From the sequence record MT446423.1: 64,000 nucleotides of DNA. One strand, written 5' to 3'. The translations under genes were made by a program, and so were the position numbers. The notes under the pieces are model-generated. The model was not told where the DNA came from. It saw nothing but the letters and a program-made list of their open reading frames with translations, and searched no databases. This stretch comes from Escherichia virus TH58. Of this stretch, positions 7,592 through 54,812 are shown one piece after another; the first letter of the stretch is position 1; each line of letters begins with the position of its first letter.

Positions 7592-8901
7592 CATTTGATG
7601 ATTTGACTGAAGGCCAGAAAAACGCCTTCAACGTTGTTATGAACGCTATTAAAGAAAAGAAACATCATGTAACTATTAATGGGCCTGCTGGTACAGGTAA
7701 AACAACCCTTACTAGATTCATCGTTGAAGCCCTTATTTCTTCTGGAGAATCAGGTATTATTTTAGCAGCCCCTACACATGCTGCTAAAAAGGTTCTAAGC
7801 AAACTTGCGGGTCAAGAAGCATCGACTATTCATAGCATTCTTAAAATCAACCCAACTACATACGAAGAAAACGTATTGTTTGAACAGAAAAAGGTTCCCG
7901 ACTTAGCCTTGTGTCGTGTACTGTTATTTGATGAAGCGTCAATGTGCGACCGTTCTCTGTTTAAAATAATGTTAGCTAGTATCCCTAAATGGTGTACAGT
8001 AATTGGAATCGGCGACAGATGCCAGATTCGTCCGGTAGACCCAGGCGAATCAACTGCGTATCTAAGTCCTTTCTTCACTCACAAAGACTTCGTGCAATGC
8101 AACCTTACAGAAGTTAAACGTAGCAATGCACCAATTATTGATGTTGCTACTGATATTCGTAATGGCAAATGGATCTACGATAAAGTAGTTGATGGGCACG
8201 GTGTTCATGGATATACAGACCTTAAATCGTATATGATGAACTATTTTAACGTCGTTAAAACTCCTGAAGACCTTTTCGAAAATCGAATGATGGCATTCAC
8301 AAATAAGTCGGTGGACAAGTTAAATTCAATTATTCGCCGAAAACTTCTTGAAACAGAAAAACCATTTATTAAAGACGAAGTCATTGTTCTACAGGAGCCA
8401 TTTACTAAGACATATAAGCTAGATGGTAAAAATATGACCGAAATGCTTTTCAATAACGGCCAATTCGTTCGTATTCGAGATGCTGTAGAAACGTCTACAT
8501 TCGTTAAAGCACGTGGTGTTTCAGGCGAATATATGATACGATACTGGAATCTTACAGTAGAAACATATGGGGATGATGAAGAATATATCCGTGAAGATAT
8601 AAAGGTTATTTCTTCTGAAGAAGAGCTTTATAAATTTAATTTGTTTTTAGCTAAGACCGCAGAAACATACAAATTTTGGAATAAAGGTGGTAAAGCTCCA
8701 TGGAGCGAATTCTGGGATGCTAAACGTATGTTCACTAAGGTGAAGGCACTACCAGTATCAACTTTCCATAAGGCCCAGGGTATGTCTGTTGACACGGCCT
8801 TTGTTTATACACCGTGTATCCATTATGCTGATTCAGAATTAGCTAAACAGTTATTGTATGTCGGCACAACTCGTGGTCGTTTTGACGTCCATTTTATTTG
8901 A
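7588..8901 (+). CDS. dda: Dda SF1B DNA helicase
   Basis: 437 aa; MTFDDLTEGQKNAFN.. Walker A GPAGTGKT; near-colinear with T4 Dda. Confidence 0.9.
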   Translation: MTFDDLTEGQKNAFNVVMNAIKEKKHHVTINGPAGTGKTTLTRFIVEALISSGESGIILAAPTHAAKKVLSKLAGQEASTIHSILKINPTTYEENVLFEQKKVPDLALCRVLLFDEASMCDRSLFKIMLASIPKWCTVIGIGDRCQIRPVDPGESTAYLSPFFTHKDFVQCNLTEVKRSNAPIIDVATDIRNGKWIYDKVVDGHGVHGYTDLKSYMMNYFNVVKTPEDLFENRMMAFTNKSVDKLNSIIRRKLLETEKPFIKDEVIVLQEPFTKTYKLDGKNMTEMLFNNGQFVRIRDAVETSTFVKARGVSGEYMIRYWNLTVETYGDDEEYIREDIKVISSEEELYKFNLFLAKTAETYKFWNKGGKAPWSEFWDAKRMFTKVKALPVSTFHKAQGMSVDTAFVYTPCIHYADSELAKQLLYVGTTRGRFDVHFI

Positions 8902-12509: not shown

Positions 12510-14330
12510 ATGATTAAAAATGAAATTAAGGTATTGTCAGACGTAGAACATATTAAGAAACGTAGTGGCATGTATATTGGTTCTTCGGCCAAAGAAGCCC
12601 ACGAGCGTTTTTTGTTTGGTAAATATCAACAAGTTGAATATGTTCCTGGTCTGGTTAAATTAATCGATGAGATTATTGACAACTCGGTTGATGAAGCTAT
12701 TCGTACATCATTTAAGTTTGCAAATAAAATTGATGTGCAAATTAAAAATAATCAAGTTTCTGTTGAAGATAACGGACGTGGTATTCCTCAAGGTTTAGTT
12801 ACCGACCAAACAGGTGAACAAATTCCTGGGCCTGTAGCAGCCTGGACTATTCCAAAGGCTGGCGGTAACTTTGGTGATGACTCTGAACGTAAGACTGGTG
12901 GTATGAATGGCGTCGGTAGTAGTTTAACTAATATCTTCTCTACGTTGTTTACAGGCATCACGTCAGATGGTGAAAATGAAATCACTGTTAACTGTTCAAA
13001 TGGAATGGAAAACAAATCATGGACTTCTAAGAAATCTAAAGGTAAAGGCACTAAAGTAATCTTCACTCCTGATTTCTCTTCATTCGAAGAGCATAATTTA
13101 TCTCAAATTTATTTAGATATTACTTTAGACCGACTTCAAACATTGGCAGTCGTTTATCCTGATATCAAGTTCACATTTAATGGTAAAAAGGTTGATGGTA
13201 ATTTTAAACGATTTGCTAAACAATTTGGCGAAGATAACATCATTCAAGAAAATGATAAAGTCTCTATAGCATTCACAACATCACCAGACGGCTTCCGTCA
13301 TTTAACTTATGTGAATAACATCCATACCAAAAATGGCGGTCATCATGTTGAATGTGTAATGGATGATATCTGCGAACATCTTTTGCCGGGTATTAAAAAG
13401 AAATATAAGGGTATTGAAGTCACTAAAGCTCGTGTTAAAGAATGTCTCACAATGTTGATGTTTATTAGAGACATGAGCAACATGCGTTTTGATTCTCAGA
13501 CTAAAGAACGTTTAACGTCAACGTATGGTGATATTCGTAATCATATCCAATTGGATGCTAAGAAAATTGCTCAGGCACTTCTTAAAAACGAAGCCTTGAT
13601 TATGCCTATTGTTGAAGCAGCATTAGCTCGTAAATTGGCAGCAGAAAAGGCTGCAGAAACTAAAGCAGCTAAAAAGGCAACTAAAGCTAAGGTTCATAAG
13701 CATATTAAAGCTAACCAATGTGGTAAAGATGCAGATACGACATTGTTTTTAACAGAAGGTGATTCGGCAATTGGTTATCTCATTGATGTTCGTGACCGTG
13801 AACTACACGGCGGATTCCCATTACGTGGTAAGGTGATGAATAGCTGGGGTATGTCATATGCTGATATGATGAAGAACAAAGAGCTCTTTGATATCTGTGC
13901 TATCACAGGTCTTATTCTTGGTGAAAAGGCAGAGAATACAAACTATCGTAATATTGCAATTATGACCGATGCCGATCATGACGGTCTTGGAAGTATTTAC
14001 CCGGCTTTGCTTGCTTTCTTTAGTAATTGGCCTGAATTGTTTGAACAAGGACGTATTCGCTTTGTTAAAACACCTGTAATTATTGCACAAATTGGCAAAA
14101 CTCAAAAATGGTTTTATACTGTAGCTGAGTATGAAGAAGCCAAAGATACACTGCCTAAGCATAGTATTCGATACATCAAGGGATTGGGCTCACTTCAGCG
14201 GGATGAATATAAAGAAATGATTCAAAACCCTGTGTACGATGTAGTTAAACTTCCTGAAAATTGGAAAGAACTATTTGAAATGCTCATGGGTAACGACCCT
14301 GAACTCCGTAAAGACTGGATGCTTGGTTAA
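12510..14330 (+). CDS. 39: DNA topoisomerase II large (ATPase, GyrB-like) subunit, fused 39/60 form
   Basis: 606 aa; GHKL ATPase N-terminus and Toprim region; continuous ORF, not split as in T4. Confidence 0.9.
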   Translation: MIKNEIKVLSDVEHIKKRSGMYIGSSAKEAHERFLFGKYQQVEYVPGLVKLIDEIIDNSVDEAIRTSFKFANKIDVQIKNNQVSVEDNGRGIPQGLVTDQTGEQIPGPVAAWTIPKAGGNFGDDSERKTGGMNGVGSSLTNIFSTLFTGITSDGENEITVNCSNGMENKSWTSKKSKGKGTKVIFTPDFSSFEEHNLSQIYLDITLDRLQTLAVVYPDIKFTFNGKKVDGNFKRFAKQFGEDNIIQENDKVSIAFTTSPDGFRHLTYVNNIHTKNGGHHVECVMDDICEHLLPGIKKKYKGIEVTKARVKECLTMLMFIRDMSNMRFDSQTKERLTSTYGDIRNHIQLDAKKIAQALLKNEALIMPIVEAALARKLAAEKAAETKAAKKATKAKVHKHIKANQCGKDADTTLFLTEGDSAIGYLIDVRDRELHGGFPLRGKVMNSWGMSYADMMKNKELFDICAITGLILGEKAENTNYRNIAIMTDADHDGLGSIYPALLAFFSNWPELFEQGRIRFVKTPVIIAQIGKTQKWFYTVAEYEEAKDTLPKHSIRYIKGLGSLQRDEYKEMIQNPVYDVVKLPENWKELFEMLMGNDPELRKDWMLG

Positions 14331-14344
14331 TTGATAGATGTCCT

Positions 14345-14375
14345 AAGCTCCTGAAGGAGCTTCATTTTAATTTTT
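14345..14375 (+). terminator. rho-independent terminator after gene 39
   Basis: AAGCTCC-TGAA-GGAGCTT hairpin plus T-rich tail. Confidence 0.55.
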
Positions 14376-14389
14376 AATAAGGCTTAATT

Positions 14390-15490
14390 ATGAAAGTTAT
14401 GTTTATCCCATCTCGTGCGGTCCCATTTAATCCTGACCGTGTACAAGGTGGCCTTGAAGCAGTACATTTAAATGTGTTGAAATATTTAGTTTCTATTGGT
14501 GCTGATATTGATTATATCGGTTTTGATAATGACACGTTTGGTGACTGGAAAGTTACACACCATCCTGTTGGTCATCTGACTAAATTCAGTCTAGGTATGA
14601 GTTATACTATGGCTCGTAAGATTGTTGAACTAGCCGGCATCCATGAATACGATTTTGTTGTTACTATGGAACCGACTAAACTAACCGTTCAGGCAATTAA
14701 AGACGCAGGTCTCTCTAAAGTTCATAAGAATTTTATGGCAACACCATTTGAACCGGTATCTCGTGGCATTGTTCAAATTTGGGACCAGACTATTCAAATT
14801 CATAAGAATGGTGGTAAGAGTTATGCTCCTACTAAAGCCTTCCGTGAATTTGAACGTAAATATTGTTATATGACTTCAGGTCTGACTGACAAAATTGATT
14901 ATGATTATTGGCGAGCAAATCCGTTGTTTGAAGCCGAAGATTATCCGGTTATTTGTTTGAATGAGAAACCTGAAGTTCTTCCGGCGACTGATTTGATTAT
15001 TAGTGCACAACGTTATGACACTAAAATGCGTCGTACTGATGTTGCTCTTGAAGCGATTAAAGCACTAGGCGAAAATGGTGTAGGATATTGTCCAAGCAAA
15101 TGGGCACCACCAGCTAAATATCCTGTTATTATTGATGCTCAACATAGTGAAATCATGGAACGTCTTAAAACAGCTAAAGCACTTATTAATACGTGTCCTG
15201 ACACAGGTACGGTAGAGAATAGTTCTATTGAAGCCATCTCTAAAGGTGTCCCTGTAATCCAGTTAGTTTTTAAGGATTATCCTCATGCGACATTCGAATA
15301 CGACCCAGATACTGTGCGTGTAGAAATTGATTCCTCTACTCCTAAGAAAGAAGTAGTTGCGCTTTACACAAAAGCTGTATTAGAATTCACTGACACATAC
15401 GAAGCTCGAGTTAAACGTGCTGAAGCAGTATGGAAGAAGTATAATCGAGATGCAGTTGTTGCGATGTGGGATAAAATCTTCACAGCGTAA
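14390..15490 (+). CDS. putative GT-B fold DNA glycosyltransferase
   Basis: 366 aa; N-terminus resembles T4 alpha/beta-glucosyltransferase starts; C-terminal E...EA..G.PVI GT-B-like motif. Confidence 0.5.
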   Translation: MKVMFIPSRAVPFNPDRVQGGLEAVHLNVLKYLVSIGADIDYIGFDNDTFGDWKVTHHPVGHLTKFSLGMSYTMARKIVELAGIHEYDFVVTMEPTKLTVQAIKDAGLSKVHKNFMATPFEPVSRGIVQIWDQTIQIHKNGGKSYAPTKAFREFERKYCYMTSGLTDKIDYDYWRANPLFEAEDYPVICLNEKPEVLPATDLIISAQRYDTKMRRTDVALEAIKALGENGVGYCPSKWAPPAKYPVIIDAQHSEIMERLKTAKALINTCPDTGTVENSSIEAISKGVPVIQLVFKDYPHATFEYDPDTVRVEIDSSTPKKEVVALYTKAVLEFTDTYEARVKRAEAVWKKYNRDAVVAMWDKIFTA

Positions 15491-47848: not shown

Positions 47849-48192
47849 ATGCATCATATATTGTAGTGGCAGCTTTTGCGGTTGTTGCTACTGTAACAAT
47901 AGCATTTCTGAACCATAAAGTCGATTCGCTGAATACTGAATTGGCTTCTGTTAAAGAGACTGCTAAAAACAATGCTAAAGTATTAGACGACTTCAAGATT
48001 CAATATCAGTCTATAGAAGAAATGACATATAAGAATCGTGTTTTAGTTGACCAACTTAAGGCTGAAAATGAAAAGCTCCGTAAGGATTCGAAGAAGAAGA
48101 ACGTGGTGGCAAGTAAGCCAGGATTGGTCGAAAAACAAATCAACAGGTCCTTCGATTCCTTTGCAGAAGACCTCAGGAAGCTCTCAGAATGA
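47836..48192 (+). CDS. i-spanin (Rz-like; T4 pseT.3 equivalent)
   Basis: N-terminal TM helix followed by coiled-coil-like region. Confidence 0.6.
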   Translation: MLKVNASYIVVAAFAVVATVTIAFLNHKVDSLNTELASVKETAKNNAKVLDDFKIQYQSIEEMTYKNRVLVDQLKAENEKLRKDSKKKNVVASKPGLVEKQINRSFDSFAEDLRKLSE

Positions 48193-48479
48193 TTAAATTA
48201 ACTGTGGCTGTATTATCTATTGGTCTCCTAGTTGGATGTACTCAGGATGTGCCAGTAAGCCCTAAAGAAACTTTACATCCTTCATGGCCTACGCCTATTT
48301 CCGAATACAACCAGAAATGGCAAGTAAAGGTTATTGATGGTAATCCATGGGTTGGAATGCCGTTTGAAGACTCTCAAGAATTTCGTATCTGGTTAAACGA
48401 CGTAAAAAGATATGTACATGACCAGAAGACTATGTTATGTTATTATCGTAGTGGTTTAAAAGAGGAAAAATGCCAATGA
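48189..48479 (+). CDS. o-spanin lipoprotein (Rz1-like; T4 pseT.2 equivalent)
   Basis: signal peptide with lipobox LLVGC; immediately follows i-spanin. Confidence 0.6.
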   Translation: MIKLTVAVLSIGLLVGCTQDVPVSPKETLHPSWPTPISEYNQKWQVKVIDGNPWVGMPFEDSQEFRIWLNDVKRYVHDQKTMLCYYRSGLKEEKCQ

Positions 48480-48694
48480 CTAAAGAACAGCATGAATACA
48501 TTAAAGGGCTTATCTATGAATCTGAAATGGCGGCTATGATTTATGGGCGACAGATTCAACGATTAGAATCTTTGCCTCCGACTAATGACCGCTTGTTAGT
48601 TCAGTCTCGTGCTAATCTGAAAAATGAATATCAGAATAAGTGGGCAGTAGCTACTAAAGCTCTTCATGAGTATATTGGATCTTTAGTAAAATAG
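48470..48694 (+). CDS. hypothetical protein
   Basis: 74 aa. Confidence 0.45.
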   Translation: MPMTKEQHEYIKGLIYESEMAAMIYGRQIQRLESLPPTNDRLLVQSRANLKNEYQNKWAVATKALHEYIGSLVK

Positions 48695-48723
48695 TTTACA
48701 AACTCTCGGGAGCGGAGTATAAT
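48694..48723 (+). promoter_or_regulatory. T4-type early promoter inside inverted repeat (PeSL-like)
   Basis: GTTTAC, TATAAT; arms GGGAGC/GCTCC. Confidence 0.55.
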
Positions 48724-48751
48724 GCTCCTATGGATAATTGAGGAAATCTAA

Positions 48752-49050
48752 ATGAAAACATTACTAGAGAATTACATCAAACGGTCCGATGAGTATATTG
48801 ATATCTGCCGTGGAATGTCACTTGCCAATTATGACAAAGATGCAGCAAAGGCATTAGATGAAGCAGGTAAAGCTCTTCGTAAAGCTGCTAAAGAAAAAGG
48901 GGTGGATTTGCAACAACTCAAAAGTCATATGATTAAATTTATTTCTTCAAACGTTAGAAGTAAGTCAATTAATAAAAACGTTGCTGAAATTAATAAAGAC
49001 CGTCGCGAGCATAACATTCGTATTCTTGAAACTTTCTTAGGAATAAAATA

Positions 49051-49051
<1 letters not shown>
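48752..49051 (+). CDS. hypothetical protein
   Basis: 99 aa after early promoter. Confidence 0.45.
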
Positions 49052-50137
<1,086 letters not shown>

Positions 50138-50138
<1 letters not shown>

Positions 50139-50329
50139 TGAAACGATTATATGAAGTGATTGAGGCCATCGAACAGCATAAAGAATATTTGTTTGTAGCC
50201 TGGCCTTTAGTAAATGGACAATTCGGTATTGATGTGCTGGACTATGAGCATGAAGAACGTTTGGACGGCGGTATATTTGATAACGTCGACCAGGCAATTG
50301 AATGGTTAAATGAAAACTATGTACGATAA
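50138..50329 (+). CDS. hypothetical protein
   Basis: 63 aa. Confidence 0.4.
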
Positions 50330-50534
50330 ACATCATGAAATCGAAGATGAAGCATACAAAATGCTTCGTAAACTAGTGGGACTTAATATGAGTCCTACAT
50401 TAATTAACAAACTCGCAGGAATTCGTAATGATCTGAATACTCGTTACAAAGGCGAATATCATGTAGAGTTTGTTCCTGTAGGTGAACCGACCGAGCGATT
50501 TGTTGTTCGAGTTAAAGTAAATACTGTACACTGA
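50310..50534 (+). CDS. hypothetical protein
   Basis: 74 aa. Confidence 0.4.
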   Translation: MKTMYDKHHEIEDEAYKMLRKLVGLNMSPTLINKLAGIRNDLNTRYKGEYHVEFVPVGEPTERFVVRVKVNTVH

Positions 50535-50541
50535 GGTAATT

Positions 50542-50817
50542 ATGTTCCCAACTTATTCTGAAATTGTAAAGGTAGTCTTCAGTCAGATTATTGCTAATAA
50601 TATGTTTGAAGTGCTTGATAATGCAGCCGAACTCAGAGTTCATTCTCAACTAACTCATGTACTCAATGCTTTGCTCCCAGACCAAGTAGATTCTATTGCT
50701 ATTACTCTTCTCCCTGGGTCTGCACACGCCATAGTGGTATTTGATCTTGACGGCGATTTAGTTATCCAATGTGATATCAATTTCGGTACACAAAAAATTG
50801 AATGCAAAGCAATTTAA
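50542..50817 (+). CDS. hypothetical protein
   Basis: 91 aa. Confidence 0.4.
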   Translation: MFPTYSEIVKVVFSQIIANNMFEVLDNAAELRVHSQLTHVLNALLPDQVDSIAITLLPGSAHAIVVFDLDGDLVIQCDINFGTQKIECKAI

Positions 50818-50819
50818 TG

Positions 50820-50849
50820 GTTTACAACATGGTGGAGTTGTGATACTAT
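50820..50849 (+). promoter_or_regulatory. T4-type early promoter with spacer hairpin
   Basis: GTTTAC, spacer ACAAC..GTTGT, TACTAT. Confidence 0.5.
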
Positions 50850-50877
50850 AACTCTACCAACAAATGAGGAAATAGAA

Positions 50878-51114
50878 ATGCTAAGTGAAAACCCAATTAC
50901 AGTACACGAATTTCAGATTAAAGTAAAAGAATTTGCTCAAGCACTCATCAATAAAGTGTCTGAACGTTTCCAAGATGCAACATTACGAGTTATTCAAGAA
51001 TCTCCACGTTCTTTTCTCATAATCGTTAATCCTAAAGATGGTGACCAAATTACTAATCTTAAATTAGGCAGTGATGGTCTTGTTGAAGCAACTCGAGTAT
51101 ACGGAACACTATAA
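50878..51114 (+). CDS. hypothetical protein
   Basis: 78 aa after early promoter. Confidence 0.45.
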   Translation: MLSENPITVHEFQIKVKEFAQALINKVSERFQDATLRVIQESPRSFLIIVNPKDGDQITNLKLGSDGLVEATRVYGTL

Positions 51115-51234
51115 TGAGAGCTATCTCATTACTATCGAGAATGGTCATAAATCTGAGCACTACCAACTTAGCCTGTCTAATCCGGTTAAAGGTATTGTTG
51201 AATCAGAATCTTTTTATATCTCCTAAGGATTGTT

Positions 51235-52227
51235 ATGTTACCTGTCGTCAGAAAACTTATTTCTCCAAAAGAACTGGCTGAGATTATTCCTTTGTCGGAA
51301 GCTTACGCATCACAAGTGGCTTCTCATCGCGAACAAGTTAATTCGATTATGAATGGTGAAGACCCACGCAAACTTATTGTTGTAGGTCCTTGTTCAATTC
51401 ATGACCCTATTGCTGCTGTTGAATACGGCAAACGACTGGCTGAACTTCAAACTCGTCTTCCTAATGTTCTGTTAGTGATGCGCGTTTATTTTGAAAAGCC
51501 TCGAACTACCGTAGGTTGGAAAGGTCTTGTAAATGATCCATATCTTGACGGAAGCTTTGATATGAACCACGGTCTTATAGTTGCACGAACATTGTGTCGT
51601 AAACTTCTACGTATGGGACTTCCATTAGCAACTGAAGTATTAGACCCATTCACGATTAAGTATCTTTCTGGTATTTTCTCATGGGTTGCTATTGGCGCCC
51701 GTACGACTGAAAGTCAGACACATCGTGAAATTGCTTCAGGTCTACCGATGTGCGTAGGCTTCAAGAACGCAACTAATGGTTCTATTAAAGTAGCTACAGA
51801 CGCGATGTATAGTGCCGCCTGGCCTCATCGGTATATGGGTATGGACGTCGATGGTACTGTAGGCATTGTTGAAGCTGAAGGTAATCAGAATACGCATATC
51901 GTATTGCGTGGCGGGACTAACGGCCCGAACTATCATTCTTCTGATATTCAAGAAGCTTCTAACAAAGCAAGTGCATTAGGTCTGAATCATTATGTAATGG
52001 TTGACTGTAGCCATGCAAACGCTGATGGGTATTATAGCAATCAAATTGGTATTGGTAAAAATTTAGCAGCTAATGATTTGGTCAAAGGAATTATGATAGA
52101 ATCATTCCTACATGAAGGAAATCAAAAAATTTCTGATAATATGTCCTATGGCGTTTCCATTACCGATGCGTGTATCAGTTGGGAACAAACTAAAGAGCTG
52201 TTAACTTATATTAATAAGGTTCAATAA
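51235..52227 (+). CDS. class I (AroG/AroF/AroH-type) 3-deoxy-D-arabino-heptulosonate-7-phosphate (DAHP) synthase
   Basis: 330 aa; blocks VGPCSIHDP, RVYFEKPRTTVGWKGL, IGARTTESQ and VESFLHEGNQ match E. coli AroG active-site regions; TAAGGA RBS. Confidence 0.8.
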   Translation: MLPVVRKLISPKELAEIIPLSEAYASQVASHREQVNSIMNGEDPRKLIVVGPCSIHDPIAAVEYGKRLAELQTRLPNVLLVMRVYFEKPRTTVGWKGLVNDPYLDGSFDMNHGLIVARTLCRKLLRMGLPLATEVLDPFTIKYLSGIFSWVAIGARTTESQTHREIASGLPMCVGFKNATNGSIKVATDAMYSAAWPHRYMGMDVDGTVGIVEAEGNQNTHIVLRGGTNGPNYHSSDIQEASNKASALGLNHYVMVDCSHANADGYYSNQIGIGKNLAANDLVKGIMIESFLHEGNQKISDNMSYGVSITDACISWEQTKELLTYINKVQ

Positions 52228-52808
52228 TGAAAGCTAGCACATATCTTCAAATTGCTTATTTGATTTCTCAAGAATCAAAATGTTGTTCATGGAAAGTTGG
52301 TGCCGTCATTGAAAAAGATGGACGCATTATCTCTACTGGATATAATGGTTCACCGGCCGGTGGCGTTAACTGTTGTGAACATGCATCTGAAAATGGTTGG
52401 TTGAAGAATAAACCAAGCCCGGTCATCGTTGCTGGCCATAAAGAAGGCACTACAGCATTTGGACGGGTAGATAATTTTGTTTTAGCTAAAGAACATCGGG
52501 CCGCTCATAGTGCATGGTCTGCTAATAATGAAATCCATGCAGAATTGAATGCAATTTTGTTTGCAGCTCGTAAAGGTAATTCTATTGAAGGTGCTACGTT
52601 ATATACGACGCTTTCCCCATGTCCTGATTGCACTAAAGCTATTACGCAGTCAGGTATTAAAAAGGTTGTATACGCAGAATTATACGATCGATCTCCTGAA
52701 AATTGGGCAGACATTCTAAAACAAGCAGGTATTGAAGTAATTCAGTACTCTCGTAATAATCTTCGTTCTCTGAATTGGGAACAAATTCGAAACTTTTGTG
52801 GTGAATAA
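52227..52808 (+). CDS. cd: dCMP deaminase
   Basis: 193 aa; zinc motifs HAE and PCxxC (SPCPDC); start overlaps DAHPS stop (TAATG). Confidence 0.85.
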   Translation: MKASTYLQIAYLISQESKCCSWKVGAVIEKDGRIISTGYNGSPAGGVNCCEHASENGWLKNKPSPVIVAGHKEGTTAFGRVDNFVLAKEHRAAHSAWSANNEIHAELNAILFAARKGNSIEGATLYTTLSPCPDCTKAITQSGIKKVVYAELYDRSPENWADILKQAGIEVIQYSRNNLRSLNWEQIRNFCGE

Positions 52809-52809
52809 T

Positions 52810-53106
52810 ATGATTTTAACTGAACAAGAAACTATGGTTCTTCGTGAACGTATTAAAACTATTCTGTCTGTAGGCGTTCATTGTGTTGTATTTGAAAAGG
52901 CTAACGGCGAGGTACGCACCATGTTTGCTTCGCGCGATGAACTTGAAGTCAAATATGAAAATAACAATCCAGCAACAGAAGTTCGTTATGAACCTCGTGA
53001 ATCAGTTCGAGCATTCGATACCAAGTTAGGTCAGTGGCGTTCTTTCCGCCTTGATAAAGTAATTTCGGTTGATGGTACTCCGGTAGAACGTTTGCTTCTT
53101 ATGTAA
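52810..53106 (+). CDS. hypothetical protein
   Basis: 98 aa from ATG 52810. Confidence 0.45.
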   Translation: MILTEQETMVLRERIKTILSVGVHCVVFEKANGEVRTMFASRDELEVKYENNNPATEVRYEPRESVRAFDTKLGQWRSFRLDKVISVDGTPVERLLLM

Positions 53107-53133
53107 TATGCTTTACGAATAGTATGGTATTAT
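53107..53133 (+). promoter_or_regulatory. MotA-dependent middle promoter for gene 31
   Basis: TATGCTTTA MotA box, 12-nt spacer, TATTAT. Confidence 0.5.
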
Positions 53134-53163
53134 TAATCTATCGTCAAATAACAAGGAAATAAG

Positions 53164-53496
53164 ATGTCTGAAGTACAACTCCCAATTCGTGCTGTTGGTG
53201 AATATGTCATTCTGGTTTCTGAACCCGCTCAAGCAGGTGATGAAGAAGTTACCGAATCAGGACTTGTGATTGGTAAACGTGTTCAAGGTGAAGTTCCTGA
53301 ACTATGTGTAGTTCATTCTGTAGGTCCTGATGTTCCTGAAGGTTTTGTTGAAGTCGGTGATTTGACTCCACTGCCAGTTGGACAAATTCGAAATGTTCCA
53401 CATCCATTTGTGGCTTTGGGACTTAAACAACCTAAAGAAATTAAACAGAAATTCGTAACATGCCACTATAAAGCTATTCCATGTCTTTATAAGTGA
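53164..53496 (+). CDS. 31: GroES-like co-chaperonin gp31
   Basis: 110 aa; almost identical to remembered T4 gp31. Confidence 0.9.
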
Positions 53497-53504
53497 TATA
53501 AATA
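53497..53504 (+). promoter_or_regulatory. late promoter upstream of rIII
   Basis: exact TATAAATA immediately after gene 31 stop. Confidence 0.45.
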
Positions 53505-53620
53505 ACTATATGAAGAGAACACTCTTCTAAGCGGTAGCCTACAACTGAGAGACTTGTCGAAAGAAGGTGAAATTCAGACGAACGTGGCTACTAAATATTA
53601 TCTCGAATTGAGAATTTAAA

Positions 53621-53869
53621 ATGATTAAACAATTACAACACGCTCTCGAACTGCAACGCAACGCATGGAATAACGGTCATGAAAACTACGGTGCATCTAT
53701 TGATGTTGAAGCCGAAGCTCTTGAAATCTTACAGTATTTCAAACATCTGAATCCAGCACAAGCCGATCTTCGCGATATCCTGGTCCAGAAAGATGAATTG
53801 AAATATGCTAAGCCTCTGGCTTCTGCAGCACGTAAAGCAGTTCGTCATTTTGTTATTACCCTGAAGTAA
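53621..53869 (+). CDS. rIII: rIII lysis-inhibition accessory protein
   Basis: 82 aa; near-colinear with T4 rIII. Confidence 0.8.
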   Translation: MIKQLQHALELQRNAWNNGHENYGASIDVEAEALEILQYFKHLNPAQADLRDILVQKDELKYAKPLASAARKAVRHFVITLK

Positions 53870-53947
53870 GTTAAATCGAGGAGCCGTCGAACTGTTTGAT
53901 TAATGATTTGCGAATCATTATAGTTTTAAGACCTCAACAGTTTTACG

Positions 53948-53976
53948 GTGTACCTCTTGAATGTATTTTGTACTAT
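53948..53976 (+). promoter_or_regulatory. possible early promoter
   Basis: GTGTAC -35, 17-nt spacer, TACTAT -10; begins long structured leader. Confidence 0.4.
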
Positions 53977-54133
53977 CACGCGTCAGAAAAAGGTTATCTG
54001 TCTAAGTCGTGGTCGGTATGATGACGGGTTTATGGTTATCCTGTCGTTAAATATCCAAAAACCTATGTTCCCCTCGAGGGCTTGCGCAGGCAATGTCAAT
54101 AAGTCCTGCATTTTCATTTAAAGAGAATTTATA

Positions 54134-54313
54134 ATGGCAAAACAAGCTAAAGCAAAGAAAGCAGTTGAAAAGAAAGTTGATGGTACCTCTAAACGCGCTG
54201 GATACAAGCGTGGGTCGAACTCTCGTATTAATCAAACAGTTGAGAAGATCATGCGCAGAGCACGTGCAGTTCTTCGAGATGATGCTTCTCGTTTTGGAAA
54301 GGTTGTTGCATAA
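54134..54313 (+). CDS. small highly basic protein (59 aa)
   Basis: ATG 54134; Lys/Arg-rich; followed by strong terminator; not in ORF track. Confidence 0.45.
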   Translation: MAKQAKAKKAVEKKVDGTSKRAGYKRGSNSRINQTVEKIMRRARAVLRDDASRFGKVVA

Positions 54314-54318
54314 TTTTA

Positions 54319-54341
54319 GGGAGACCGAAGTCTCCCTTTTG
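54319..54341 (+). terminator. rho-independent terminator after small basic ORF
   Basis: GGGAGAC-CGAA-GTCTCCC hairpin plus TTTT. Confidence 0.65.
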
Positions 54342-54373
54342 TGCGTTTAGGGCAGAAAAAGTTTAAAAAAGAT

Positions 54374-54402
54374 GTTTACTCTCCTGTAGGATGTGTTACT
54401 AT
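54374..54402 (+). promoter_or_regulatory. T4-type early promoter
   Basis: GTTTAC, 17-nt spacer, TACTAT, TAGACTTGTACC box. Confidence 0.5.
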
Positions 54403-54443
54403 AGACTTGTACCACCTAATCAATAAAACAATCGGAGAATAAA

Positions 54444-54812
54444 ATGAAAATCAATCTGAACTCATACATCAAATGTAAAGACCACGATGGTTATAAAGCT
54501 ATCGAAATTAAAGAATTCCAGTGGATGTTATACAAAGAGCAATTTGAGTTCGTAGGTTGTATGACACCTGAAGGTCCTTCAGATGATTTCTCTTGGAAAA
54601 TTGTGTTAGCAAACTTTTTCACAGGTGACACATACGAATTAAAAACTATTATTACCGGTAAAATTCGTTCAGAAACATATGTTGACGAAGAAACTGGTTA
54701 CTCTGAAGATGTTACATGGTATCAAAATGGACGCATTACAGCAGATAACCTGATCGAAAAAATGAAAGCCAAAGGTGTTTTAAATTTAGACAATTGGATT
54801 AAAGTTGCATAA
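54444..54812 (+). CDS. hypothetical protein
   Basis: 122 aa; own early promoter cassette; GGAGAA RBS. Confidence 0.5.
   Translation: MKINLNSYIKCKDHDGYKAIEIKEFQWMLYKEQFEFVGCMTPEGPSDDFSWKIVLANFFTGDTYELKTIITGKIRSETYVDEETGYSEDVTWYQNGRITADNLIEKMKAKGVLNLDNWIKVA

Follow-up and report, generated by a model that had tools for sequence, protein, structure and literature searches.

Type I-alpha 3-deoxy-D-arabinoheptulosonate 7-phosphate (DAHP) synthases, which join phosphoenolpyruvate (PEP) and erythrose-4-phosphate (E4P) into DAHP, gate the pathway to chorismate, from which prephenate is made. In AroG of Escherichia coli, the replacements P150L and S180F cause feedback resistance, and the residues Q151/Q152 and S180/S181 contact the main chain of the inhibitor (PMC9529685). 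Prephenate itself has been linked to another group of enzymes: RlhA forms 5-hydroxycytidine (ho5C2501) in 23S rRNA and needs genes of prephenate biosynthesis and of Fe-S assembly (PMC5727448), TrhP forms the prephenate-dependent 5-hydroxyuridine ho5U34 (ho5U) in tRNA alongside the O2-dependent TrhO (PMC6599085), and in anaerobic ubiquinone synthesis by UbiU/V, 18O labelling identified prephenate as the oxygen donor (PMC10990095). A third relevant system is the DNA of phage RB69, which contains mono- to tri-arabosyl-5-hydroxycytosine, not hydroxymethylcytosine (hmC) (PMC13326640, NAR 2026); 5-hydroxy-dCMP is the product of the gene-42 homologue, which uses flavin and O2, RB69 and HY126 make no hmC, and UDP-arabinose is derived from ribulose-5-phosphate by a phage isomerase, kinase/uridylyltransferase and phosphatase (PMC13326640). 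Here we describe a gene for a predicted DAHP synthase with a rebuilt feedback site in a 64,000-nucleotide stretch of the genome of Escherichia virus TH58 (MT446423.1; hereinafter the window). The gene belongs to a phage clade that accompanies a phage U32 protein, and we tentatively propose that it supplies prephenate for hydroxylation of cytosine. Since the window also encodes a protein nearly identical to RB69 gp3 (see the table), its phage is of the arabosyl-5-hydroxycytosine (ara-5hoC) kind.

A sequence-only reading of the window had taken the open reading frame (ORF) in question for a complete class I DAHP synthase, and this assignment is borne out both by profile matches and by the full set of catalytic ligands. 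The ORF begins at the first possible start after an in-frame stop, with no in-frame start further upstream. Three of the four motifs quoted in that reading, VGPCSIHDP, RVYFEKPRTTVGWKGL and IGARTTESQ, are exact, and the fourth is IESFLHEGNQ rather than VESFLHEGNQ. The profile search proposed as a check yielded a match far beyond chance to Pfam PF00793, DAHP_synth_1 (E=1.7e-74, 250.6 bits with a cut-off of 25.5, residues 36-323), along with matches to NCBIfam TIGR00034, aroFGH (426.2 bits, cut-off 173.2, E=7e-128), and to the PRK12755 model (454.2 bits, cut-off 343). The isozyme-specific models for AroG (equivalog NF006723, 362 bits) and AroH (NF009396, 385 bits) scored below their respective cut-offs of 568 and 463; all four NCBIfam matches were DAHP synthase models, with no KdsA-type model among them. 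The PHROGs family phrog_5045 matches the protein over its full length (residues 1-330, E=8.6e-182), and a PDB sequence search matched it to E. coli AroF, the Tyr-sensitive isozyme (PDB 6AGM; E=1.5e-104; 50% full-length identity).

The alignment to AroG, likewise proposed as a check, covered E. coli AroG, AroF and AroH (MG1655) as well as the enzymes of four further phage genera, and all metal and PEP ligands proved to be kept. The metal ligands C53, H260, E289 and D311 (AroG C61, H268, E302 and D326) do not vary among the five phage genera or in any of the 120 database homologues compared, and the 12 PEP/E4P residues are unchanged in the window protein and in the four other genera (AroG positions compared: R92, K97-P98-R99-T100, E143, G163-A164-R165, K186 and R234; in window numbering, the kept residues include R83, K88-P89-R90-T91, R156, K177 and R225). 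AroF shares the KPRT motif with the phage enzyme, and also its metal ligands and PEP/E4P residues. The gene and its counterpart in Escherichia phage SF agree at 99.5% of nucleotides, all changes being synonymous, and at 100% of amino acids; like SF, the phage of the window is a Mosigvirus. The between-genus dN/dS of the phage DAHP synthases is 0.14-0.21, the pattern of a gene that is under purifying selection, by all appearances for catalysis. Almost certainly, then, the product is a type I-alpha DAHP synthase, and it is predicted to be catalytically competent.

The strength of this assignment bears directly on another proposal of the sequence-only reading, namely that the enzyme is a repurposed aldolase that would condense PEP with arabinose-5-phosphate or another aldose to provide a DNA sugar. 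PF00793 does also cover the 3-deoxy-D-manno-octulosonate-8-phosphate synthases, a DNA glycosyltransferase gene is present in the window, and the E. coli DAHP synthase accepts pentose-5-phosphates, if poorly. Against this stand an aroFGH equivalog score of 426 bits with a cut-off of 173 and the retention of every E4P/PEP ligand. Furthermore, the DNA sugar is arabinose, the route to which from ribulose-5-phosphate is complete without such a step and is fully assigned to other phage enzymes, and RB69, which lacks the gene, nevertheless makes mono- to tri-arabinosylated cytosine (PMC13326640), so that the idea is barely credible and close to refuted. If there is a link to DNA modification, it may run through hydroxylation of the base, not through the sugar.

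The phage enzyme departs from its cellular relatives at the site of feedback inhibition: the aromatic amino acid pocket of AroG (D6, D7 and I10 together with P150, Q151, D155 and S180) is not preserved in the window protein. The shortening of the N-terminus by about 8 residues relative to AroG, noticed previously, is real (the active-site Cys is residue 53 compared to 61 in AroG), and relative to AroF the phage enzyme is 9-10 residues shorter. The number of residues that precede the position of AroG P18 is 7-11 in all 28 members of the phage clade and mostly 15-20 in bacterial homologues, and AroG D6, D7 and I10 (AroF N7, N8 and I11) have no counterpart in the clade. The positions of AroG P150, Q151, D155 and S180 (P151, Q152, D156 and S181 in AroF) are occupied in the window protein by I141, K142, G146 and P171. 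The combination I/K/P at AroG positions 150/151/180 is found in 26 of the 28 clade members, the two most basal ones having I/R/P and P/K/P; Pro at the S180 position and Tyr in place of F209 are common to all 28, and Gly replaces D155 in 27. By comparison, about 92 bacterial homologues, plus AroF, AroG and AroH, contain Pro, Val or Gly at 150, Gln at 151 and Ser at 180, the last being Thr in a single case. At the position of AroG S211, the phage enzyme has Gly, as do the Tyr-sensitive isozymes.

We infer escape from feedback because AroG P150L and S180F are resistant and because Q151 and S180 hold the inhibitor (PMC9529685); the phage enzyme is therefore likely to be insensitive to inhibition by Tyr, Phe and Trp. 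The earlier suggestion of a deregulated enzyme, made from the truncation alone, is thus probably correct and on stronger grounds, namely, loss of the N-terminus combined with clade-wide replacement of P150, Q151, D155 and S180. The described feedback-resistant DAHP synthases (AroG P150L, S180F, D146N and L175D; AroF fbr) are similar in that the phage changes affect the same pocket positions, 150, 151 and 180 (PMC9529685), and dissimilar in that the phage changes are natural, multiple, shared by a clade and accompanied by an N-terminal truncation, with the resistance being predicted. In another difference from AroF, the phage gene resides in a lytic phage next to the gene for dCMP deaminase and is not under TyrR control. 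The clade is a candidate for a natural deregulated enzyme, since nature has already altered several sites that metabolic engineers mutate to make DAHP synthase feedback resistant, and a test case for loss of the type I-alpha allosteric site.

A tblastn search of a collection of 50,697 records with the window protein detected 212 records, including those of Klebsiella, Serratia, Erwinia, Proteus, Edwardsiella and Enterobacter phages; 139 records carry a copy at 95% identity or more, many of them annotated as phospho-2-dehydro-3-deoxyheptonate aldolase. The survey of carriers that had been called for thus reveals a gene that is widespread in non-T4 Straboviridae and one that is not novel, being present in RefSeq annotation and in PHROGs, where phrog_5045 is assigned to the category 'moron, auxiliary metabolic gene and host takeover'. 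Full-text literature searches found no published function for a phage DAHP synthase, returning only papers on bacteria or nothing relevant. The presence of the gene was, then, already known; what is new here is the phage clade, its altered feedback-site residues and the link to U32. In a neighbor-joining tree of the 120 best homologues from a collection of 5.8 billion proteins (100 bootstrap replicates), the 28 phage sequences were monophyletic in 100 of 100 replicates, and E. coli AroF belonged to the sister group. The arrangement pseT...DAHP synthase...cd is shared by Mosigvirus SF, Winklervirus X20, Marfavirus F48, Bragavirus PM2, Kanagawavirus PEi26 and two uncultured T4-like contigs. This conserved placement points to a single old acquisition followed by vertical descent, and the clade apparently derives from an AroF-like ancestor, with many non-T4 Straboviridae having received the gene by inheritance at this pseT-cd locus.

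This distribution is pertinent to the first hypothesis of the sequence-only reading, that of additional chorismate for p-aminobenzoate and folate in conjunction with the phage frd and td genes; the folate could serve thymidylate synthesis and the baseplate. Both frd and td are found within the window, the td product still needs methylene-tetrahydrofolate, and the T4 baseplate reportedly contains a folate. The hydroxymethyl-dC rationale, however, does not apply to RB69-type phages, which make 5-hydroxy-dCMP with flavin and O2 instead of hmC (PMC13326640). In addition, folate is catalytic and is recycled by frd, so that demand would be small, and pab or fol genes do not accompany the DAHP synthase gene. 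To our knowledge, T4 and its relatives, which need folate for hmC, have no DAHP synthase gene; among the tblastn matches listed (60 of 212), the Escherichia and Shigella ones are either near-identical Mosigviruses or a distinct genus (EcS1, vB_SdyM_006). Folate supply thus appears quite improbable as the role of the gene.

The members of the U32 family characterised so far are prephenate-dependent, O2-independent hydroxylases that act on C5 of cytosine or uracil or on the ring of a quinone, and the phages in question encode a member of this family. The cytosine-modification cluster of SF, 9 kb upstream of the window, contains a 386-amino-acid Peptidase_U32 protein (PF01136, above threshold), gp149 (94799-95959; locus L010 10800-11960), which is equivalent to RB69 gp50, a protein tabulated only as 'sugar or heterocycle reductase' and left undiscussed (PMC13326640). 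That paper, the Thanatos paper and the review of Tevenvirinae base modifications make no mention of DAHP, shikimate, prephenate or U32. Among five genera, the phage U32 proteins share 81-88% identity and 13 Cys that never vary, those of a CX4CX3CX2C motif (C340-X4-C345-X3-C349-X2-C352) included, compared with only 42-73% identity across comparable genera for the UDP-arabinose enzyme AfhE. A PDB sequence search with the phage U32 protein gave no match.

By tblastn, U32 is present in 221 phage records, and its counts closely follow those of DAHP synthase across hosts: Escherichia, 136 records with U32 and 124 with DAHP synthase; Klebsiella, 26 and 25; Shigella, 14 and 12; Proteus, 7 and 7; Serratia, 7 and 6; Enterobacter, 4 and 4; Edwardsiella, 3 and 3. 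A chimeric query comprising both proteins gave a union of 242 records, so that 191 (221 + 212 - 242) have both genes, out of about 195 records with a clade-type DAHP synthase. The 21 records with DAHP synthase only consist of 17 non-clade sequences at less than 60% identity, among them faecal contigs and one of bacterial origin, and four others that include at least one 14-kb fragment. Where the genome is complete, a clade-type DAHP synthase is essentially always accompanied by U32. The 30 records with U32 only include RB69 and six Yersinia records. AfhE is far more widespread, with 373 records that include Dhakaviruses such as JS98 and 57 Acinetobacter phages. There is no Acinetobacter record among the U32 matches, in contrast to the 57 that are AfhE-positive, and the record counts imply that these phages lack the clade-type DAHP synthase as well. 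The JS98 cluster includes the isomerase, AfhE, AfhF, kinase, synthase and transferase genes and has neither U32 nor chorismate mutase; the cluster of Acinetobacter phage DLP3 as tabulated (PMC13326640) likewise has neither.

These comparisons also speak to the notion of a carbon-flux valve, in which consumption of E4P and PEP would shift pentose-phosphate flux toward ribulose-5-phosphate and arabinose-5-phosphate, or remove E4P-derived inhibitors of isomerases, and thereby support the synthesis of nucleotides and UDP-arabinose. The gene is indeed found only in phages that draw heavily on ribulose-5-phosphate for arabinosylation, and E4P and its oxidation product inhibit sugar-phosphate isomerases. 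Yet the Acinetobacter phages and Dhakavirus JS98 have the same UDP-arabinose genes and no DAHP synthase; moreover, E4P is an intermediate of the non-oxidative branch and not a dead end, and the valve is pure speculation to which no feature of the sequence points. We consider it even less probable than folate supply.

Directly after U32, Enterobacter phage Entb_45 encodes a 79-amino-acid chorismate mutase (Pfam CM_2, E=2.4e-10, above threshold) that is coupled to both of its neighbors. CM_2 is above threshold in the U32 clusters of Kanagawavirus, Bragavirus, Tegunavirus and Shewanella phage Thanatos-2, and by tblastn the mutase adjoins the synthase in 51 records, those of Marfavirus, Winklervirus and EcS1 among them. 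In Thanatos-2, the order of the cluster is altered, yet U32 and the mutase remain an overlapping pair. Six residues are invariant in the phage mutases, at the spacing expected of AroQ apart from one shortened segment, and they match the catalytic set of AroQ. No paper in the searchable literature combines chorismate mutase, U32 and phage, and none makes the connection between DAHP synthase, U32 and prephenate. In PHROGs, the phage U32 protein is labelled 'peptidase' and the neighboring chorismate mutase, which is monofunctional and of the AroQ type, 'unknown function'.

Taken together, these observations suggest, tentatively and at somewhat less than even odds, that the deregulated DAHP synthase supplies prephenate for an anaerobic synthesis of 5-hydroxycytosine. 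Under this scenario, with the N-terminal strand that closes the pocket lost, with the inhibitor-holding Q151 and S180 replaced by Lys and Pro, and with P150, D155 and F209 changed as well, the phage enzyme would be blind to aromatic amino acids and would maintain shikimate flux when Phe, Tyr and Trp shut down the host AroG, AroF and AroH, as is the case in rich medium or under gut conditions. The host shikimate enzymes would carry DAHP onward to chorismate, a chorismate mutase, of the phage in most genera and of the host in the case of Mosigvirus, would convert it to prephenate, and the phage U32 protein would draw on prephenate for hydroxylation of cytosine at C5 in the absence of O2. Such an O2-independent route would run parallel to the O2/flavin-dependent 5-hydroxy-dCMP synthase, much as nrdAB is paralleled by nrdDG, TrhO by TrhP and UbiIHF by UbiUV. 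A 169-kb genome at 37.9% G+C contains about 64,000 cytosines; with one prephenate per cytosine, a burst of at least 100 phages would require millions of prephenate molecules, and this genome-wide demand is a plausible reason to carry the rate-controlling enzyme.

A less specific explanation is that of a generic auxiliary metabolic gene, which would provide more chorismate and aromatic amino acids for the burst of phage protein after shut-off of host transcription. An intact enzyme with a remodelled feedback site is what such a gene would look like, and the PHROGs category fits; RB69 does well without the gene, as expected of a conditional booster, and genes of this kind typically contribute no more than the one step that controls the rate of a host pathway. 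Nevertheless, this explanation does not account for the restriction of the clade-type gene to U32-bearing phages among the 50,697 records or for the phage chorismate mutase that adjoins U32. Furthermore, the gene is missing in Dhakavirus JS98, in Acinetobacter phages and in every other T4-like group, with equal need for aromatic amino acids, and the host DAHP synthases persist through a 25-minute infection. We regard the generic role as rather unlikely, albeit a more serious contender than the three alternatives considered above.

Several considerations weigh against the prephenate proposal. Its steps are predicted from sequence, and a rebuilt pocket could bind a different effector instead of none. 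The 64-kb window does not reach the U32 gene, whose presence in this phage is deduced from near-identical genomes. The phage U32 protein is only 15-21% identical to RlhA, TrhP and UbiU/V, and part of the classical U32 Cys signature is missing as aligned: C192 alone aligns with a Cys common to all E. coli U32 proteins. The co-occurrence of U32 and DAHP synthase is confounded by shared ancestry, with few independent gains or losses visible. The DAHP synthase is dispensable for the module, given that RB69 retains U32, and Tegunavirus TG1 retains U32 and the mutase, both in the absence of the DAHP synthase gene. Dhakaviruses infect E. coli without any of the three genes, and therefore the anaerobic route would not be universally needed by enteric ara-5hoC phages. 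Finally, Mosigvirus has no recognisable chorismate mutase. Its mutase slot is occupied by an unrelated 79-amino-acid ORF (RB69 p049, phrog_8601; L012 26256-26495), for which a comparison with the mutase gave a BLASTP E value of 6.9 and an hhalign probability of 0.1%, with negative Pfam and NCBIfam searches; a search with the chorismate mutase profile of all six frames of the complete RB69 genome and the window produced nothing better than E=0.006, and that of parts of SF was negative as well. Hence the module is incomplete in Mosigvirus and must rely there on the host PheA/TyrA. In SF, the p049 slot is split into ORFs of 34 and 33 amino acids, both unannotated (L010 11960-12239).

Compared with RlhA, TrhP and UbiU-UbiV, the phage U32 protein belongs to the same PF01136 family and is Cys-rich, as expected of an Fe-S protein, and the proposed hydroxylation of cytosine at C5 is that performed by RlhA; the cellular enzymes are documented to depend on genes of the shikimate pathway (PMC5727448, PMC6599085, PMC10990095). 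It differs in having a Cys pattern of its own and in that the proposed substrate is a deoxynucleotide or DNA, with a genome-wide stoichiometry. We know of no cellular system that has a DAHP synthase and a chorismate mutase of its own dedicated to U32 hydroxylation. Perhaps the nearest parallel among phages is the CmoA/CmoX pathway for 5-carboxymethylcytosine in Synechococcus phage S-B43, which also modifies cytosine genome-wide and consumes prephenate, and whose authors flagged prephenate availability as an open issue; in that pathway, however, prephenate is used to make carboxy-SAM and is not an oxygen donor, and shikimate-pathway genes were not reported in S-B43 (PMC12783734).

The nesting of DAHP synthase within the set of U32-bearing phages, usually with a mutase, and in connection with the arabosyl-5-hydroxycytosine cluster brings three unexplained genes under one hypothesis. 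The sole known phage route to 5-hydroxy-dCMP needs O2, and yet the hosts are gut bacteria, a gap that the prephenate route, if real, would close. Prephenate would then serve a virus as oxygen donor for the first time, and the recently discovered chemistry of organic oxygen donors would extend to viruses and to DNA; the route would also explain how gut phages fully modify their DNA in anoxia, in facultatively anaerobic hosts, and would predict oxygen- and nutrient-dependent weak points in phage therapy strains such as Mosigviruses.

The position of the gene in the pseT-cd interval is as previously described, and it fills the slot that the T4-style naming of the RB69 and PEi26 records leaves as the cd.1 position. 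In RB69, the type Mosigvirus, cd.2 directly abuts cd, and the complete genome contains no DAHP synthase (best tblastn match of the window protein, E=2; control with cd, 2.6e-117). In the window, the cd start is duplicated, giving a 19-bp imperfect direct repeat, and the segment of about 1.1 kb between the two copies (approximately 51130-52223), comprising a small ORF and the DAHP synthase gene, is missing from RB69. The RB69 junction (RB69 locus L011, about 8237-8255) has a single copy of the repeat, on which the two BLASTN flank alignments overlap, and reads ...ACACTATAATGAAAGCTAGCACAT.... The arrangement looks like a deletion or an insertion of the repeat-flanked segment by short-homology recombination. 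At 95% identity or more, AfhE is present in 152 records and the DAHP synthase in 139, which leaves about 13 records of the Mosigvirus type without the gene.

The overlap of the stop codon with the dCMP deaminase start was also described correctly, but translational coupling on these grounds was overstated: the overlap is real, and cd has a Shine-Dalgarno-like TAAGG of its own, 7 nt upstream. Across genera, the DAHP synthase gene either adjoins cd directly or has one or two small ORFs between itself and cd. As for regulatory signals, the only upstream intergenic gap contains a sigma-70-like match that is only suggestive and might serve as promoter for cd.2 and the three genes after it (the small ORF, that for DAHP synthase, and cd); the total of sigma-70-like matches and the terminator scan did not exceed the shuffled expectation. 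No terminator-like site was found on the + strand in 48000-54500, and MotA-box middle promoters (TGCTT-N11-13-TANNNT) numbered 9 compared with 12.2 expected, with none upstream of the DAHP synthase gene. The features of the locus and of the U32/mutase regions are compiled in the table.

Table. Features of the window around the DAHP synthase gene, and U32/mutase regions of other phages (positions without a locus name refer to the window)
Feature	Position	Strand	Basis or remark
DAHP synthase coding sequence, 330 aa, type I-alpha, phage clade (predicted)	51235..52227	+	ATG start; Pfam, NCBIfam and PDB matches
TAATG stop/start overlap of the DAHP synthase gene and cd	52225..52229	+	Read from sequence; stop TAA 52225-52227, cd ATG 52227-52229
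Shine-Dalgarno-like TAAGGA, 5 nt before the DAHP synthase ATG, overlapping the stop of the upstream small ORF	51224..51229	+	Read from sequence
dCMP deaminase (cd), 193 aa	52227..52808	+	Pfam dCMP_cyt_deam_1 E=1.6e-26; 91% identity to RB69 cd
Small ORF, 51 aa from GTG	51071..51226	+	Hypothetical gp243 in phage SF; almost wholly within the segment missing from RB69
Left copy of 19-bp imperfect direct repeat (ATAATGAGAGCTATCTCAT), duplicated cd start	51111..51129	+	BLASTN vs RB69
Right copy of 19-bp repeat (ATAATGAAAGCTAGCACAT), true cd start	52224..52242	+	BLASTN vs RB69
cd.2 homologue (DUF7320)	50878..51114	+	Pfam E=1.5e-35; same position as RB69 cd.2
cd.3 homologue (DUF7355)	50542..50817	+	Pfam E=2.8e-34
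Candidate sigma-70-like promoter, TTTACA-17-TACTAT plus upstream TG	50821..50849	+	Pattern match; only upstream intergenic gap
Polynucleotide kinase/phosphatase (pseT), upstream boundary of the interval	49239..50138	+	Pfam HAD_PNKP E=2.2e-58 and AAA_33
RB69 gp3 homologue, beta-arabinosyltransferase 2	14390..15490	+	98.9% aa identity to RB69 p003; function per PMC13326640 Table 1
U32/mutase region, Entb_45	L016 4989-6397		
U32/mutase region, Thanatos-2	L021 3501-4891		
U32/mutase region, Pm5461	L020 3495-5285		
U32/mutase region, TG1	L022 3495-5171		

Several minor observations were made in the course of these comparisons. The RB69 cd gene (L011 7660-8252, minus strand) leaves the frame of the window cd near the C-terminus (…ADILKPSWY* vs …ADILKQAGIEVIQYSRNNL…) and then resumes the same sequence; it is annotated as 169 amino acids, compared with 193. 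A local error in sequencing of the old RB69 entry probably accounts for this frame break, which resembles the split ORFs that have been remarked upon (PMC13326640). The arabinosyltransferase-2 gene lies some 609 bp farther along in the window than collinearity with SF predicts (window about 13780-15490 vs SF 118439-119539), so that within its first 14 kb the window must differ from SF by an insertion or deletion. The best sigma-70-like promoter match of the region, TTTACA-17-TATAAT at 48695-48723 (11/12), is located just upstream of an ORF that starts at 48752 and may be an early promoter for the genes on the pseT side. The gene that follows cd, at window positions 52798-53106 (the gp31.1 position), encodes a WYL_2/Sm-like SH3 domain (Pfam E=2.3e-9), and the cd-WYL_2 pair is also found in the uncultured T4-like contigs L024 and L028. 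In the latter contig (1-4915), nrdA, which encodes the large subunit of ribonucleotide reductase, is in pieces with unrelated ORFs in between, and one of these pieces bears an intein-splicing domain.

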